Shown here one piece after another: positions 5,608 through 31,934 of a stretch of DNA of 64,000 bases. The notes beneath the pieces are model-generated. The model was not told the origin of the DNA. It worked only from the letters and a program-made list of their open reading frames with translations, and made no database searches. Origin of the DNA: a virus; the IMG/VR virus record IMGVR_UViG_3300027028_000045, positions 2,307-66,306 of that record; one strand, written 5' to 3'. Every line of letters begins with the position of its first letter. Position 1 is the stretch's first letter. The translations under genes were made by a program, and so were the position numbers.

Positions 5608-6609
5608 ATGTCGATCATTACGATTAATGGCGTCCCGACGGACGTCGACATACGCGAAGAATTAGAACTTTTTGAATGGGATCGTCCTACGTGGCACGCT
5701 GACCGATTAACGGCGGCAAGCCCTTTTCGCGATGACCGTACTCCTAGTTTTTATGTTTATTACGAAGACACCTCGACAGCCAAGGCCGGATATTTCGGAG
5801 ACAGCGGCACGGGCGAACGTGGCGGATTCATTAAACTGCTCGCATTCTTGCGTGAAGAAACCGAGGAAGAGACGGCTTCTTACCTCGTCGAGACCTATGG
5901 TACTGGCGAAGGTGATACACGCCTAAAACTCCGCATTCCGCGTTTAAAAATCGTTGAGCCTAGACGGCCATTAGCCGAAAGTTTACTGACCGACGTTAAA
6001 ATCGGCCCGAATGCTTACTTAACTAACCGCGGAATAAGCGAAGACGTCCAGCGCGAAGCAGGCGTAGGCTTGATCGGAAAAACGGCCGTGATTCCGTGGC
6101 GGTTGCCTAACAAGCGTCTGGCAAACGTAAAATACCGATCAACGCGCAATAAAGCGTTTTGGTACGCGAAAGGCGGCTGGCCTATCCGCGAGCTGATCTA
6201 CGGAATAGAAACCGTATATGCTGATCGCGCTAAAACAGCGGTGCTTGCCGAGGCTGAAATCGATGCGCTTTCGTGGCGTACGGTGGGCTTTTGCGGCATT
6301 GCGACAGGCGGCAGTAAATTTTCCGACCGAAAGGCGGAAATAATTGCGCAGTCGCCGATCGAATATTTAATAGTAATTACGGATAATGACGAAGCCGGAA
6401 CAAAACTTCGGAAGGAGGTCGAGCTAAAGATGCGCGGTGAAGTCAGGCTTGCGCACGGTTATATAACGGAAGGATTTAAGGATGCGAATGAATTATTAAT
6501 AGCGGAAGGTGAGGGCGCTCTTAAGCGAGTTGTTGATCGTGCGGAGGCGGAAAGTATTAACGTAAGGTTCGGGAATATACGAACTTCCGGTCGGCGGAGG
6601 TTGTCTTAA
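5608..6609 (+). CDS. DNA primase (Toprim) with degenerate zinc-binding domain
   Basis: SPFRDDRTPSF N-terminus; Toprim EAEIDALS, TDND, KDANE motifs; follows helicase. Confidence 0.88.
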   Translation: MSIITINGVPTDVDIREELELFEWDRPTWHADRLTAASPFRDDRTPSFYVYYEDTSTAKAGYFGDSGTGERGGFIKLLAFLREETEEETASYLVETYGTGEGDTRLKLRIPRLKIVEPRRPLAESLLTDVKIGPNAYLTNRGISEDVQREAGVGLIGKTAVIPWRLPNKRLANVKYRSTRNKAFWYAKGGWPIRELIYGIETVYADRAKTAVLAEAEIDALSWRTVGFCGIATGGSKFSDRKAEIIAQSPIEYLIVITDNDEAGTKLRKEVELKMRGEVRLAHGYITEGFKDANELLIAEGEGALKRVVDRAEAESINVRFGNIRTSGRRRLS

Positions 6610-6875
6610 CCCTCCGTGTTGCTACCGGATAAAGGACGCCAATCATATAAGGCTTCGACCGGGCAGTCGAGGCAGCGCGCTATGGAATACGCCATTTCAA
6701 CGTTAGGAATGTTCCTTAGCGAAATATAATCGGAAAGGTGCGTTTTAGAGATTCCGACCATATCTGCGAGTTGGGTAAGCGTGTAGCCGCGTTTATAGCA
6801 CAGCTCCTTTATCCGGCAAGATACGACCGAATACTGCGAGATAAACACCTCCGCAAAGCATTTCAATCCACGCAC
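6606..6875 (-). CDS. XRE-family HTH transcriptional regulator
   Basis: RIKEL..KRGYTLTQLADMVGISKTHLSDYISLRNIPNVEMAYSIARCLDCPVEALY; exact start uncertain. Confidence 0.88.
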   Translation of the reverse strand: MRGLKCFAEVFISQYSVVSCRIKELCYKRGYTLTQLADMVGISKTHLSDYISLRNIPNVEMAYSIARCLDCPVEALYDWRPLSGSNTEG

Positions 6876-6919: not shown

Positions 6920-7126
6920 TCATTCGGGCGGATTTGGAAGAATACGGACAACCTTTTCGATAGGCACGTCCAATTCGAGGCAAACGGCTTCTATAGTTGA
7001 TAAACTAACAGGCTTGTCCTCGTTAATCTTTGTTACAAGGTTCCTATGGATGACTTTATCCCTTAGAATTCCAGTTGTTAATCCTCTTTCAGCCAGGTAA
7101 GTCCTAAGCGGTTCATAACTAATCAT
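6920..7126 (-). CDS. XRE/Cro-like HTH regulator
   Basis: MISYEPLRTYLAERGLT...VSLSTIEAVCLELDVPIEKVV; RBS AAGGAG before ATG 7126. Confidence 0.85.
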   Translation of the reverse strand: MISYEPLRTYLAERGLTTGILRDKVIHRNLVTKINEDKPVSLSTIEAVCLELDVPIEKVVRILPNPPE

Positions 7127-7155
7127 AAAAAAATCTCCTTTTTCCTTAAATTCCC

Positions 7156-7171
7156 GCACACAAAAGTGTGC
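7156..7171. promoter_or_regulatory. palindromic operator GCACAC-AAAA-GTGTGC between the divergent xre and aimR promoters
   Basis: Perfect 6-bp inverted repeat at the -35 position of the aimR extended -10 TGtTATATT (7177-7185); reverse promoter TAGACT-17-TATAAT lies at 7183-7211. Confidence 0.6.
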
Positions 7172-7226
7172 ATTTATGTTATATTATAAACAGAGAGAAG
7201 GCGCAAGTCTATAAGGGGTGTGTATT

Positions 7227-8393
7227 ATGCAGTCAATTAAAGATGATTTTATCAACCTCAGAGAAAAATACGACTTAAGTATAACATGTATTTCCACAAA
7301 AACAGGAATTAACCAAGATGTGCTATATGAGTTTACTGATAGCGGATCTATCGGATTTAAGCACTTGGTAACACTTTCGAAGTTCTTCTACAAAGAGGAC
7401 TATCACGAAACAATGCGTGAATGGTGCATGAAAATAGAATCTTCTGAATGGCTTAAACAGGCTTTTGAGTACGCTGCCTTAAAAAGAGATACAGAGTTAC
7501 TTGGTATGCTTCTTGAAAAAAACAAGGGAGAGCCAGGCGTTAAGCAATTCGTTGAGATGTATAGTATTTTGTTAGATTTCATGACTGATAGAATTAATTT
7601 CAATGAATTATGTAAGAATGTAAAAAATCAAAAAGTATCAAGTTCAAAAGACCTCGCGGTATTGAGAGATATTTATAACTGTGTTTCTCTTTACTATGAA
7701 GGAGATTTTCTCGGAATGGCTCGGGTAGCGAATGATATAAATAATTCCGTTAAAAAGATAGGTAAAAGAAGAGCGTTTTTCAGAGAGTCATTCTCTTATC
7801 GTTTATCAGAATTACTAGCCCCAGCATATCTCCATTTAAATGATTTGGAATTATGCCGCGAACATGCACAGGTCCTGGTTGAAACCGGGCTCAATTATAA
7901 GCATATATCTGATGGATATTACTATTTAGGTATGTGTAACTTATACGAAGACAAAGGAACATGTTTAGATTTTTTAATTAAAAGTGTAGATTATGCAAAG
8001 ATGACAAATGAAGATGTCTTAATTTCTGAAGCGATGAATAATTTAAAATTCGTCAAAACACTTTTTGATTTCTTAAATGGTGGTAAAGTACCTGATCTAA
8101 CAACATTCGCGGACAAATTACTTCTAGGGGGTGATGAGGATTTTATAGTATACTTTAACTACGTTAAGGGAAGGGAATTGGGAGACATATATAAAGCATT
8201 CAGCCATTTCCACAAAGAGATGAATTTCTTTTTCGCTTCACTCGCAGCGGAGACCTTACGTATTGTTGGGGTAGACCCTAATCAGGTTAAAGCTTTAAAG
8301 GAGATCAAATTAAAAACTAAGGGAGCTGTTGTTTATGAAAAAGATTTTATTAACGGGTTTTGTTTTAGGGGCATTAGTTCTTTCGCTTCTTAA
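7227..8393 (+). CDS. aimR: arbitrium peptide receptor AimR (HTH plus TPR)
   Basis: About 388 aa, N-terminal HTH, helical TPR-like body (ISDGYYYLGMCNL), AT-rich, immediately followed by a signal-peptide small ORF; start ATG 7227 (or GTG 7218). Confidence 0.85.
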   Translation: MQSIKDDFINLREKYDLSITCISTKTGINQDVLYEFTDSGSIGFKHLVTLSKFFYKEDYHETMREWCMKIESSEWLKQAFEYAALKRDTELLGMLLEKNKGEPGVKQFVEMYSILLDFMTDRINFNELCKNVKNQKVSSSKDLAVLRDIYNCVSLYYEGDFLGMARVANDINNSVKKIGKRRAFFRESFSYRLSELLAPAYLHLNDLELCREHAQVLVETGLNYKHISDGYYYLGMCNLYEDKGTCLDFLIKSVDYAKMTNEDVLISEAMNNLKFVKTLFDFLNGGKVPDLTTFADKLLLGGDEDFIVYFNYVKGRELGDIYKAFSHFHKEMNFFFASLAAETLRIVGVDPNQVKALKEIKLKTKGAVVYEKDFINGFCFRGISSFAS

Positions 8394-8469
8394 TACAGAA
8401 GGATCAACAAAAGATTTAGCAAATGATAGTACACCAATACAGACAAGCGCAATAAAAGTAGGCGGATAA
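8335..8469 (+). CDS. aimP: arbitrium pro-peptide AimP, 44 aa
   Basis: Translated by hand: MKKILLTGFVLGALVLSLLNTEGSTKDLANDSTPIQTSAIKVGG; RBS GGGAG; Sec-type signal peptide; overlaps the aimR 3' end by 59 nt. Confidence 0.88.
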   Translation: MKKILLTGFVLGALVLSLLNTEGSTKDLANDSTPIQTSAIKVGG

Positions 8470-8475
8470 AAGATC

Positions 8476-8499
8476 GGGCCAATTGGCCTTTTTCTTTTG
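8476..8499 (+). terminator. intrinsic terminator after aimP
   Basis: GGGCC-AATT-GGCCT hairpin followed by a T tract; short stem. Confidence 0.5.
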
Positions 8500-8622
8500 T
8501 CTTTTTTTATGATATTTTTCGGAAAAGTCTAAAAAACTAAGATTATCCAAAAACCACAATCTTCTCCTCTTCAGATGCTAATATATGGTCATGGAAGAAA
8601 AAATATAAAAAACTTTATATCA

Positions 8623-8659
8623 AATGTCCCGAAACTAACAGACCATATGCGACTGTATA
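8623..8659 (+). promoter_or_regulatory. candidate phage-sigma promoter, copy 1
   Basis: AATGTCCCGA-N14-ATGCGACTGTATA; both blocks and the spacing recur at 25436-25472. Confidence 0.6.
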
Positions 8660-8685
8660 GGTGTAAGGGACGGGAGGAGAAAAAC

Positions 8686-9216
8686 TTGGATAAACAAAAA
8701 TTTAATAGACTTCAGATGGCCGCAGATTACGGAGCGATTCCGTATGTACAAAGAGAATCGCAACGAATCGCACACTTAGTTCCCGACCAAACGTCGTTCG
8801 AGCAGCGGACCTTACTAGCGATAGGTTACTGGCTGGAACGATATGAAGGGAATGGTCGCGATAAGAAAGCGTTGATCCAGCGCATTATCGTAAGGGAACG
8901 AAATAAGTATCTGAAGGCTTCACGAAAAGAAGCGGCTTTATCTATAGAAGGAATGCGAGATGACGGTAATGTCTCGTGGGAGCCTCAAGACGTTTTGACG
9001 GACGTCGAAGGCGAAGTTTTACTAAAAGAAAAGACCGCCCTGTTGACGCAAGGCGATCTTCGCAAAGAATTAATACTTAGATGTTGGAGCGAAGGATGTA
9101 CGAATATGACCGAAATCTCCACGTTGTTGACGCAACGTTTAGGAGGAAATTTCGAAGCACATCGCAAGTTCATCCGTCGTTTCCGTTTACACTGCCAGCG
9201 CGAACTAACAGCATAA
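8686..9216 (+). CDS. ECF-sigma-factor-like protein
   Basis: TTG start after GGGAGGAG; 176 aa; region-2-like (SFEQRTLLAIGYWLERYE...LIQRIIVRERNKYLK) and region-4-like HTH (RKELILRCWSEGCTNMTEISTLL). Confidence 0.6.
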   Translation: MDKQKFNRLQMAADYGAIPYVQRESQRIAHLVPDQTSFEQRTLLAIGYWLERYEGNGRDKKALIQRIIVRERNKYLKASRKEAALSIEGMRDDGNVSWEPQDVLTDVEGEVLLKEKTALLTQGDLRKELILRCWSEGCTNMTEISTLLTQRLGGNFEAHRKFIRRFRLHCQRELTA

Positions 9217-9350
9217 TCACGTATCTAGGCACGAGGGCTTCGCTACGTATTTTAATGATAATCGATTGATAATCGAATTTCAAGCGAACACCATGCGAAC
9301 AACCCTCCACCTAGTACGTTTTACCTAAAAATTAAGGAGGCTAACGTACT

Positions 9351-9494
9351 ATGAAACAACCTACAAACGATTTCCCACCCGTAGTAAACATCCAAAAATT
9401 AACGGAATTACAATACGAAGGCGCGTTATACCGCGAGGATGATCCGGCGGACTATTACCGACCGACTTCGATCAAGGCGGTGCGCGTCGGATGA
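9351..9494 (+). CDS. small hypothetical protein, 47 aa
   Basis: AAGGAGG RBS; MKQPTNDFPP...KAVRVG; ATGA overlap with the next ORF. Confidence 0.6.
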   Translation: MKQPTNDFPPVVNIQKLTELQYEGALYREDDPADYYRPTSIKAVRVG

Positions 9495-10015
9495 AACCTT
9501 CCGAAATAACCATAACCCACCACGCGAAGCAGCGATTTAAAACCCGATTTGGCATCGATAATCATTATGCCGCACGTAATTGGATCGCGCAGAAAATGGA
9601 ACACGCTCAGTATCTCGGAATCACTGTAGATGAATCCGGCAAAGAGGCTCGCATGTACGCGAGTAAAGGCGTAGTTATTCATTTTGCGGTAGACACAAAC
9701 GTCGTTATTACCGTTTATAAGGAAAAAGACAACGCCGGGTCGATCGCCAAGCGCTTACTTATCGACGCCTATAATATCGTACAAAAGAACGCAAACGAGG
9801 TGCTTAGTAAAACAGAAACGTTCTCGGAGGAATTAGACGAAGAATTGCGATGGTTAGCCGAAGAATTCAAACGTACTCGTTCGAAAGCCAAAAGAATGGC
9901 GCTACAAGCCCGAATTAATGCCGTTCAAATGCGCATCGACGAGCTGCCGACCGAATCGTTCGAAATCAAGCGCAAGGTAACGCGTTATGCGAGAGGAGTG
10001 GCTGCGTATGTTTGA
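9491..10015 (+). CDS. protein with N-terminal RelE/BECR-like (DUF4258-like) domain and C-terminal coiled coil
   Basis: ITITHHAKQRFKTRF...VVITVY motif followed by a heptad-rich helix. Confidence 0.5.
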   Translation: MKPSEITITHHAKQRFKTRFGIDNHYAARNWIAQKMEHAQYLGITVDESGKEARMYASKGVVIHFAVDTNVVITVYKEKDNAGSIAKRLLIDAYNIVQKNANEVLSKTETFSEELDEELRWLAEEFKRTRSKAKRMALQARINAVQMRIDELPTESFEIKRKVTRYARGVAAYV

Positions 10016-25437: not shown

Positions 25438-25472
25438 TGTCCCGATTTCCGCCGCCTACATGCGACTGTATA
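25436..25472 (+). promoter_or_regulatory. candidate phage-sigma promoter, copy 2
   Basis: AATGTCCCGA-N14-ATGCGACTGTATA, same blocks as 8623-8659. Confidence 0.6.
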
Positions 25473-30801: not shown

Positions 30802-31551
30802 TTGGGCGAATCAGTAACGGAGAAAATTAATCGTATATTTGGTATAGATGACTCGTATAAAGCTCCGTCAAGGCTTATGGAGATTTTGTTTGATCGAGAG
30901 CGTCGTGAGGAGGTGTTCCGACAATTCGTAGCGGACCCGGTACTTAATGCTACTGAGAAGGACGTCTTCCACGAATACTTTCAGGATGAGCACGCGGATA
31001 GAAAAACTAAGAAACAAGATTTTACTCCGCGTAGTGTGGCCGATCTTTTAGCGAGGGTTACTGACGGCGGACTTGAGTCGACTACTAGCTACGATGGGTG
31101 TGCGGGTACAGGCGGACTCACAATCGCAAAATGGCAGTCTGATCGCATTAAGCACTCACCGTTTGATTACAAGCCTTCGTGGTATTTCTATCACTGCGAA
31201 GAGATGAGTGATCGCGCAATACCTTTCCTGTTGTTTAATCTACTATTCCGAGGAATGAATGCCGTTGTCGTGCATTGCGACGTCCTGACTAGAAAAAGTA
31301 AAGGTGCGTTTTTTATTCAAAACGACCATGACGACTTTATGCATTTCTCAGCGCTGAACGTACTTCCATATACCGACCTCACCGCGGAAGAGTTAGACGT
31401 GACTTGGGATGATGACTTAATCCCCTATGACGATCTCATCGAATCGAAAGAGATCCCCGCCCATGTAATAAACCCAACGGAGTTCGGCGCAGTTAGCGCT
31501 GAAACTAAATTCCTTCATTTACTGTGCGGAATTGATGCAGAGGTGTCGTAA
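30802..31551 (+). CDS. N6-DNA-methylase-like SAM-binding protein (HsdM-like, no NPPY motif)
   Basis: QDFTP..VA.LL, YDGCAGTGGL, EEMSDRAIPFLLFNL..RGM, HCDVL. Confidence 0.7.
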   Translation: MGESVTEKINRIFGIDDSYKAPSRLMEILFDRERREEVFRQFVADPVLNATEKDVFHEYFQDEHADRKTKKQDFTPRSVADLLARVTDGGLESTTSYDGCAGTGGLTIAKWQSDRIKHSPFDYKPSWYFYHCEEMSDRAIPFLLFNLLFRGMNAVVVHCDVLTRKSKGAFFIQNDHDDFMHFSALNVLPYTDLTAEELDVTWDDDLIPYDDLIESKEIPAHVINPTEFGAVSAETKFLHLLCGIDAEVS

Positions 31552-31934
31552 TGGGCGCATCTACGAACAAGCCCGACCAGCACTTACGGTATGAAGCGCA
31601 GTATAAGCTCGACGGACCGGACGGCGTCAAGGCGCTTCTAGCCGACTACACAACGTTAAGACAACGGCGTTTCTTAGGCGACATGGCTGCTTGCGATATT
31701 CTAATCGACCTAGAACGCGCAATTGAATTAGCGGCCCTGACCGGTAAGCAATACAAGGCACTACGTTTAGTCTATTTCGATGATCTATCGCAAACACAGG
31801 CGGGTGCCTCGCTCGGGGTGCGTCAGGATGTCGTGGCTCAGCATATTGCGGTCGCGGTTAACAAAATCGCGGACATCTACTACTATTGGGCGTCACACGG
31901 CGAAGGGTACGGATATACGAAAGGGGCGATTTGA
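31551..31934 (+). CDS. sigma-70 region-4-type HTH regulator (possible late activator)
   Basis: LTGKQYKALRLVYFDDLSQTQAGASLGVRQDVVAQHI. Confidence 0.75.
   Translation: MGASTNKPDQHLRYEAQYKLDGPDGVKALLADYTTLRQRRFLGDMAACDILIDLERAIELAALTGKQYKALRLVYFDDLSQTQAGASLGVRQDVVAQHIAVAVNKIADIYYYWASHGEGYGYTKGAI

Follow-up and report, generated by a model that had tools for sequence, protein, structure and literature searches.

Arbitrium, encoded by aimR and aimP, is a phage peptide-signalling system that governs the choice between killing the host and dormancy. The stretch of DNA analysed here ("the window", 64,000 nucleotides (nt) of one strand, positions 2,307 to 66,306 of IMG/VR virus record IMGVR_UViG_3300027028_000045) covers almost the entire length of a 68,993-bp Bacillus provirus from a phage lineage of ~65 kb, and it contains an arbitrium locus in which the gene following aimP, at 8686-9216, seems to code for a sigma-70-like protein of 176 amino acids (aa); that this gene, and not a small AimX, is the regulated output of the arbitrium module is the reading that we favour as fairly probable. 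Arbitrium outputs described in the literature are an RNA (SPbeta), a MazE-like peptide (phi3T) and small anti-repressors (extended systems). The AimR operators of SPbeta and phi3T consist of 6-bp inverted boxes at a 25-bp spacing, with spacers of 23-28 bp being tolerated, and further AimR binding sites have been reported in the SPbeta genome (PMC6458997). In both of these phages AimR works by antitermination at a terminator that lies just 5' of the site it binds, no promoter follows that site, and the distance from terminator to site matters (PMC10769878). A class of aimR-aimP loci without recognised neighbours, the "generic RP architecture", has been left unexplained (Kabel et al., bioRxiv 10.1101/2025.11.23.689978).

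The window's locus would belong to the latter class, and its parts are as follows (positions are those of the window; RBS, ribosome-binding site; ORF, open reading frame).

7177-7185, plus strand: TGTTATATT, an extended -10-like element and putative aimR promoter (sequence reading only)
7227-8393, plus strand: aimR, arbitrium receptor (NCBIfam NF038310 1.7e-63, Pfam PF22871 5.9e-24, phrog_1728 2.7e-63)
8335-8469, plus strand: aimP, 44-aa pro-peptide with a hydrophobic N-terminus and the C-terminus ...TSAIKVGG (ORF with RBS, overlapping the 3' end of aimR)
8466-8500, plus strand: intrinsic terminator directly 3' of aimP (GC stem 8476-8489, T-run 8490-8499, flanking A-tract; terminator scan)
8511-8547, no strand: GATATT-N25-ATTATC repeat (present, at chance level; left arm AATATT in the related locus L006)
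8516-8553, no strand: best candidate AimR operator, TTTTCGGA-N22-TCCAAAAA (7/8 complementary; right edge 25 nt 5' of the -10 hexamer)
8576-8584, plus strand: TG-extended -10 element TGCTAATAT with a poor -35 (8556-8561, ACAATC)
8625-8659, plus strand: P_sig, promoter-like two-block motif TGTCCCGA-N16-GCGACTGTATA (-10-like block ending 26 nt 5' of the start codon)
8686-9216, plus strand: gene for the sigma-70-like two-domain protein, 176 aa (TTG start, RBS GGAGGAG 6 nt upstream; phrog_24888, function unknown)

The AimR of the window scores 214.9 bits with the lysogeny_AimR model NF038310, the cut-off of which is 70 bits; its translation probably starts at ATG 7227, the frame being open from GTG 7218, and the mature AimP peptide, as read from the pro-peptide, is probably AIKVGG or a slightly longer form. 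The RNA of the aimP terminator folds at -13.5 kcal/mol (z -3.8, with 0/200 shuffles folding equally well), and a GC hairpin with a T-run was seen by eye after aimP in every arbitrium group. Past the terminator come A/T-rich DNA with inverted repeats, TGCTAATAT, the two-block motif, the RBS GGAGGAG and TTG 8686, so ordered, and within this 216-nt spacer between aimP and the sigma-like gene an aimX-type output was not seen, the downstream unit being the conserved 176-aa protein gene. The in-frame ATG 8575 (a 213-aa ORF) was tried as the start of the sigma-like gene and rejected, as it has no RBS, the homologues start at TTG, and there are stops in the leader of the relatives. The aimR and aimP identities, the terminator, the protein fold and the patterns of conservation and co-variation given below are computed results.

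The nearest named relative, Bacillus phage vB_BauS_KLEB27-1 (OM654379; cultured, host Bacillus australimaris), has a locus of the same layout (L001, OM654379 33447-34885), in which the AimR homologue is labelled only "transcriptional regulator" and aimP (...ADIRPGG) is without annotation. The gene order common to this phage and the window runs from helicase, primase and two reverse helix-turn-helix (HTH) genes through the AimR-like "transcriptional regulator" and an "RNA polymerase sigma factor" (gp51) to DNA polymerase I, ribonucleotide reductase, thyX, methyltransferase, a second "sigma factor" (gp92) and terminase. The 176-aa protein has homologues in prophages of B. pumilus, B. safensis, B. 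altitudinis, B. velezensis, B. licheniformis, B. sonorensis and others.

What lies upstream of the sigma-like gene was compared across 33 IMG/VR loci and 3 genome loci containing a homologue of the 176-aa protein (the scan of genome contigs yielded just 4 loci, too few for a census). An aimR-aimP pair stands directly 5' and in the same direction in 19 loci, aimP ending 171-245 nt before the sigma-like gene; their AimR proteins are of five types, 25-55% identical to each other, and the AimP C-termini in the relatives are xIKVGG, xxRPGG or PKPGG. At the same spot, 12 loci without arbitrium have a divergent pair of an ImmR-type XRE repressor and a Peptidase_M78 (ImmA) protein, and in 6 distant loci (36-38% identity) nothing but small XRE genes is seen there. 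As different modules occupy the same spot, the sigma-like gene sits in the position of the first lytic gene of the switch, and the ImmR/ImmA pair lying divergent 5' of the same gene and P_sig in 12 relatives means that the same output is under control there; judged by these comparisons, it counts among the core genes of the ~65-kb phage lineage, the sigma-like gene being kept whatever module precedes it. In the ImmR/ImmA-type loci (L014-L016, L018, L020-L022, L026-L028, L046 and L047), the divergent ImmR-like XRE and Peptidase_M78 (ImmA/IrrE) genes are located ~300-1200 nt 5' of the sigma-like gene, and a palindrome of the GCTAA-N4-TTAGC type lies between the repressor pair and the two-block motif. 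Small XRE genes are present in the window, too:

6606-6875 and 6920-7159, minus strand: two small XRE-type HTH genes, divergent from aimR (Pfam HTH_3 1e-11, HTH_26 2.6e-4)

Their homologues are found directly 5' of the sigma-like gene in the distant relatives without arbitrium (L029-L034).

A preliminary description of this stretch, made from the sequence alone, had put an "ECF-sigma-like" (extracytoplasmic function) factor into the slot of aimX. The slot does hold a sigma-like protein, two-domain and sigma-70-like by fold (AlphaFold2 and structural alignment) and not by curated hidden Markov model (HMM). The AlphaFold2 model (31 homologues; predicted local distance difference test, pLDDT, 76.6) has two four-helix domains, residues 1-86 and 107-175, and a disordered linker at 87-110, and the two domains match sigma domain 2 and sigma domain 4. 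In exhaustive structural alignment, residues 8-83 match sigma domain 2 of 1sig_A (Z 7.5, root-mean-square deviation 2.2 Å over 70 residues), pro-sigmaK 8vjl_B (Z 7.0), 3ugo_A (Z 6.9, 2.1 Å over 67) and 4x8k_A (Z 6.7); residues 105-176 match sigma domain 4 of CnrH 4cxf_A (Z 6.1, 2.4 Å over 64 residues), SigA region 4 6ono_B (Z 6.0), 3mzy_A (Z 6.0) and 3vep_D (Z 5.6); and the entire chain is alignable to sigma28, sigmaB, sigma32 and AlgU. Sigma factors make up 20/20 of the best PDB rows and 30/30 of the best Swiss-Prot AFDB rows of a Foldseek search, with E-values of 0.09-1.4, and nothing was found in the PDB at E <=0.001 with the whole model, because the disordered linker joins two domains; phage sigma24 homologues are among the BFVD matches.

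Sequence profiles point the same way once they are deep enough: the single-sequence and 31-sequence profiles found no sigma match among PDB sequences, whereas the profile of 128 family members found SigW (1.3e-3, full length), AlgU (~1e-3), sigma-H, SigF and SigI, with no other significant matches except designed helical repeat proteins. Matching of curated models is limited to 3/128 members for Sigma70_r2 and 1/128 for Sigma70_ECF below threshold, and Sigma70_r2 is found on 56/100 of the nearest named ESM Atlas clusters. The family's 11 near-invariant columns all fall within residues 102-170. A predicted complex of the N-domain with residues 225-335 of B. subtilis beta' scored 0.36 against 0.02 for the best control (at least 86% of contacts agreeing between runs, partner pLDDT at least 73), a weakly supportive pass that may mirror no more than likeness to solved sigma-beta' complexes retained by the predictor; the mark of this test is reached by 51/78 solved complexes and 2/108 mismatched pairs, and passes at <=0.60, comprising only 5/78 solved complexes plus all 4 passing mismatches, are more often wrong than right unless the pairing is likely beforehand.

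The 176-aa protein thus very probably has a sigma-like fold, and it is likely to work as a sigma factor, one which would bind RNA polymerase and recognise P_sig. The proposal of a sigma nature is, per se, not new, as GenBank labels the KLEB27-1 homologue a sigma factor. The "ECF" label, on the other hand, is not established by sequence models or promoter type: the protein has no Sigma70_ECF, Sigma70_r2 or Sigma70_r4 match, the candidate -35 block lacks the AAC of ECF promoters (though CGAC is present on the -10 side), and no anti-sigma factor was identified nearby.

The preliminary description had also proposed a second promoter at 8623-8659, and a promoter-like motif does lie there in the form of P_sig (8625-8659), which has an exact copy elsewhere in the window, heading a block that ends with another sigma-related gene:

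25438-25472, plus strand: second exact copy of P_sig, with an unrelated spacer, right after the nrdF stop and 29 nt 5' of the first gene of the next block
31551-31934, plus strand: 127-aa regulator with a sigma region 4-like domain only (Sigma70_r4 5.3e-5, 23.1 bits, cut-off 24.1)

The block headed by the 25438 copy contains dUTPase, thyX, kinase and methylase genes and ends with the 127-aa regulator, whose KLEB27-1 homologue is gp92 (annotated as a sigma factor) and which, from its place 5' of the packaging genes, is a candidate for activating the late genes. Motifs of the P_sig class lie 60-72 nt 5' of the sigma-like start in 30/31 close loci, be they arbitrium-containing or not, and are also present in the 36-38%-identity relatives, where the -35 block is near-identical. 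Exactly two copies are found in 6/7 genomes searched, with 0 in the reversed-pattern controls, and both copies of one genome carry the same lineage-specific -10-side bases; extra copies of the -10-side block alone are at chance level (31 found vs 23 expected). In two ImmR/ImmA-type genomes the second copy stands at the head of an operon adjoining the integrase gene. The two blocks are unlike sigma-A hexamers. The near-invariant -35 block parallels the conserved C-terminal domain of the protein, as the variable -10 block parallels the variable N-domain, and this parallel, together with the co-varying copies, is what one would look for in a P_sig that is read by the adjacent protein, in which case the sigma-like protein would activate its own gene. 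The earlier proposal that the sigma factor amplifies its own expression and switches on lytic genes fares accordingly only in part: P_sig behaves like a phage-specific promoter and could provide the amplification as well as turn on a second gene block. P_sig is absent from L009; in that locus (L009:3704-4000, peptide ...PKPGG), a TG-extended -10, TGCTACTAT, lies just 50 nt 5' of the sigma-like start, so that L009 represents a naturally occurring arrangement devoid of the putative autoregulatory promoter.

As for the arbitrium side of the spacer, the extended -10 with a poor -35 that had been pointed out at 8576-8584 not only is there but is specific to the arbitrium cassette, TGnTAnnAT being found once in each of the 19/19 arbitrium loci and in 0/12 ImmR/ImmA loci. 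Although their AimR proteins are just ~25-27% identical, the window and KLEB27-1 are homologous at the nucleotide level from exactly this element onwards, and this marks the edge of the cassette. The GATATT-N25-ATTATC repeat, previously pointed out for its AimR-operator-like geometry with chance considered possible, is indeed present at 8511-8547, but at chance level: dinucleotide shuffling of the 76-nt A/T-rich stretch gives an expectation of 0.61 for a 6-bp arm pair with <=1 mismatch and a spacer of 25, and in L006, the AimR of which is 68% identical to that of the window, the left arm reads AATATT instead of GATATT. The same stretch contains four such arm pairs in total (P=0.007).

The earlier operator is probably 5 bp off, as 8516-8553 fits the geometry of the family better when the loci are compared. 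The repeat at that position is single in the window and kept in all three close loci checked, L003 and L006 among them; its layout (8-N22-8) is that of the perfect AATTGGGT-N22-ACCCAATT in L019/L023, and its 38-bp span is shared with the perfect AAGTTG-N26-CAACTT of L010 (6-N26-6). Operator candidates, where found, span 36-38 bp and have their right edge 25-26 nt 5' of the -10 hexamer, and the half-site classes track the HTH classes of AimR, groups A and A3 having TTnGG/CCnAA (with just a right arm noticed by eye in L017) and groups B and C having AGTT/AACT. AimR may bind at 8516-8553. With the 25-26-nt spacing, the half-site nearer the promoter comes to lie at about -45 to -38, which is where an activator would replace the missing -35, and this fixed geometry fits the preliminary claim that apo-AimR activates the sigma gene; the assumption of a classical activator behind that claim is less secure, as AimR antiterminates in phi3T and SPbeta (PMC10769878). 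The order of terminator, then site (here a candidate), that is known from those two phages is also seen in the window, and read-through from the aimP transcript is therefore an equally good route. Antitermination and promoter activation may both be in use, possibly jointly, and through either of them AimR would control the sigma-like gene.

Put together, the proposed mechanism would run as follows. Early in an outbreak, with AimP peptide scarce, free AimR would sit on the widely spaced inverted repeat just 3' of the aimP terminator and let RNA polymerase reach the sigma-like gene by antiterminating the aimR-aimP transcript, by helping at the TG-extended -10 promoter, which lacks a -35 and keeps a constant 25-26 nt to the repeat, or by both. 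Joined to the host core RNA polymerase, the sigma-like protein would then read P_sig before its own gene, providing positive feedback and commitment, and would also read the copy at 25438, turning on the nucleotide-metabolism block that ends in the region-4-only regulator. As AimP accumulates, AimR would come off the DNA, the sigma-like gene would stay off, and lysogeny would result. A broader version of this, in which a self-activating phage sigma factor forms a bistable commitment switch behind an exchangeable sensory cassette (ImmR/ImmA, small XRE repressors, or arbitrium in five or more combinations of receptor, peptide and operator), arbitrium directly gates a sigma cascade, and AimR combines antitermination with activation of a promoter that has no -35, is a tentative picture that we would hesitate to call probable.

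Several observations weigh against the proposed mechanism. Neither Pfam nor NCBIfam gave a match for the 176-aa protein, Sigma70_r2, r4, r4_2 and ECF included; the fold E-values and Z-scores are all modest, and helical domains easily reach middling Z-scores. The candidate operator is 7/8 complementary in A/T-rich DNA and, on its own, has P=0.14. P_sig could be read by a host factor instead, P_sig and the extended -10 could drive the sigma-like gene without AimR, and the two XRE genes 5' of aimR may be the true master switch. L009 has no P_sig, therefore autoregulation is not universal.

Three rival explanations can be weighed against these data. The sigma-like gene could be the first gene of a conserved early/middle operon with its own promoters, beside which arbitrium has landed, the real output being the ~95-nt leader RNA (aimX-like) that the extended -10 promoter would give, or an effect on the divergent XRE genes. 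The presence of P_sig with or without arbitrium, which shows that the gene has a promoter-like element of its own, speaks for this, as do the supposed action of SPbeta-type aimX as an RNA and the additional sites bound by AimR in the SPbeta genome (PMC6458997), yet we consider it unlikely: the leader before the sigma-like gene contains no conserved RNA structure and no conserved small ORF, Rfam gave no match on 8300-9500, the AimR target is the unit directly 3' of aimP in every studied system, and the orientation of the cassette and its distance to the sigma-like gene are constant across five AimR types.

The other two rivals concern the protein and its target. A sigma-like fold might serve a non-sigma function, e.g., that of a free-standing DNA-binding activator or of an anti-repressor binding the XRE or ImmR repressor, much as the AimX anti-repressors of extended arbitrium do, such anti-repressors being among the known arbitrium outputs; the lack of a sigma HMM match and the weak support from the beta' complex test agree with this, and the C-domain resembles with similar scores the non-sigma proteins PqqD (3g2b_A, Z 7.2) and lasso-peptide B1 (6jx3_B, Z 6.8), i.e., winged or HTH peptide-binding domains. 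It seems quite unlikely all the same, given that the sigma2 and sigma4 matches come in the right order with a linker of the right length, that the whole chain can be aligned to sigma28, sigmaB, sigma32 and AlgU, that among natural PDB proteins the family profile finds sigma factors only, and that the same family stands beside three repressor types, a poor fit to a repressor-specific anti-repressor. Lastly, the reader of the two-block motif might be an alternative sigma factor of the host, or the motif might be the site of another phage regulator, with the sigma-like protein acting elsewhere, e.g., at unidentified middle promoters. Two copies per genome do make a small regulon for a sigma factor, and the -35 block is near-identical in very distant relatives, as if a conserved host protein read it; however, the lineage-specific -10-side bases shared within a genome point to a phage-encoded reader, the 176-aa protein is the only phage regulator always beside the motif, and we know of no B. 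subtilis alternative-sigma consensus sequence that P_sig matches, which counts against a host sigma factor. We would rank this explanation slightly lower still. Control of the sigma-like gene by AimR, with P_sig being read by the gene's own product, stays the preferred reading.

The 3' side of the sigma-like gene deserves a separate description.

9222-9320, plus strand: conserved intergenic element 3' of the sigma-like gene (long-range stem; no Rfam match)

This spacer is unusually conserved across relatives whose proteins are ~55% identical. In its stem (RNAalifold), ACGTAnCTAGG pairs with CTAGTACGT, 3 of the 26 predicted pairs having compensatory changes; a GCGAACA direct repeat lies inside the stem, and the window's close relatives have a tandem GATAATCGA repeat. 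On the minus strand, a sigma-A-like promoter (TTGAAA-17-TATCAT, 10/12) at 9283-9255 points into the sigma-like gene and is overlapped by the tandem repeat TGATAATCGA(T/A) at 9254-9275, and a terminator-like hairpin of 13 pairs is present at 9061-9030; the two combined would give an antisense RNA of ~200 nt over the sigma-like 3' end. Right after the sigma-like gene, 9351-9494 holds a 47-aa ORF with a strong RBS (phrog_30530, function unknown), the start region of which is conserved in relatives.

Six RNA runs share words with the window at the level of contigs. One of them includes the entire 61.7-kb genome of a relative and probably represents DNA, and others contain short stretches, 90-95% identical and from relatives, of aimR/aimP and of the sigma-like gene. 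None of the six has a contig on 8434-8581, which proves nothing; contigs give no start, end or level. In run X20, a transcriptome of a cultured organism, several contigs of 31-35 nt with a word depth of ~25,000 fall on 9200-9241 with 1-2 differences; they cover the sigma-like 3' end and the 5' arm of the stem and could stem from a related prophage, as fragments of a stable RNA, or resemble this region without being related to it.

A full-text search of the literature retrieved no description of a sigma-like arbitrium output (Stokar-Avihail et al. 2019 lying outside its coverage), and what appears to be new is the link to arbitrium, the geometry of the cassette and the paired promoters, which suggests a fourth, so far undescribed arbitrium output mechanism. 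Should it prove true, this would be the first arbitrium output that is lytic transcription machinery itself, and arbitrium would be pluggable straight into lytic transcription, with sensory modules (arbitrium, ImmR/ImmA) being swapped before one conserved master gene. The window's locus is, moreover, a concrete and widespread candidate for a part of the "generic RP" class, and the idea is directly testable, as KLEB27-1 is cultured and has the same layout.

How, then, does the locus compare with the systems already described? Phage sigma cascades such as those of SPO1 (gp28, then gp33/34) and T4 (gp55) are alike in having a small phage sigma-family protein at the head of a temporal block and a second, region-4-like regulator further downstream; those phages are, however, virulent, and their sigma genes answer to no communication peptide. 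With autoregulated ECF sigma factors the locus shares a promoter of unusual sequence before the factor's own gene, whereas the window's protein matches no ECF, r2 or r4 model, has no adjacent anti-sigma factor identified, and is preceded by a candidate -35, TGTCCCGA, without AAC. The ImmR/ImmA modules of the ICEBs1 and phi105 type are connected with it by their occurrence, divergent, 5' of the same sigma-like gene and P_sig in the 12 relatives, although the input in the window is a phage-made peptide and not DNA damage or protease-mediated cleavage of a repressor.

Closest of all are the arbitrium systems themselves. With SPbeta and phi3T the window has in common an AimR of the same family, a short, presumably secreted AimP directly downstream, a terminator after aimP, a (here putative) output gene next in the same direction, and a long-spaced repeat after the terminator (6-N25-6, 37 bp, in SPbeta; 8-N22-8, 38 bp, in the window's candidate). 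It differs from them in that its output would be a lineage-conserved 176-aa sigma-like protein instead of a 51-aa MazE-like peptide (phi3T) or an RNA (SPbeta), that a cassette-specific TG-extended -10 promoter follows the repeat, no promoter having been found at that place in phi3T (PMC10769878), that the sroA-F (yopM-R) operon context is missing, and that the peptides end in GG (xIKVGG) and not in GA. Extended arbitrium (aimR-aimP-aimX-aimC-aimL; bioRxiv 10.1101/2025.11.23.689978), in turn, resembles the window in placing its switch region beside small HTH regulators and acting on the entry into the early lytic operon; the window, however, has neither a convergent aimC 3' of aimP nor a small anti-repressor ORF, its XRE genes are upstream of and divergent from aimR, and the controlled gene itself would be a transcription factor of the lytic programme.

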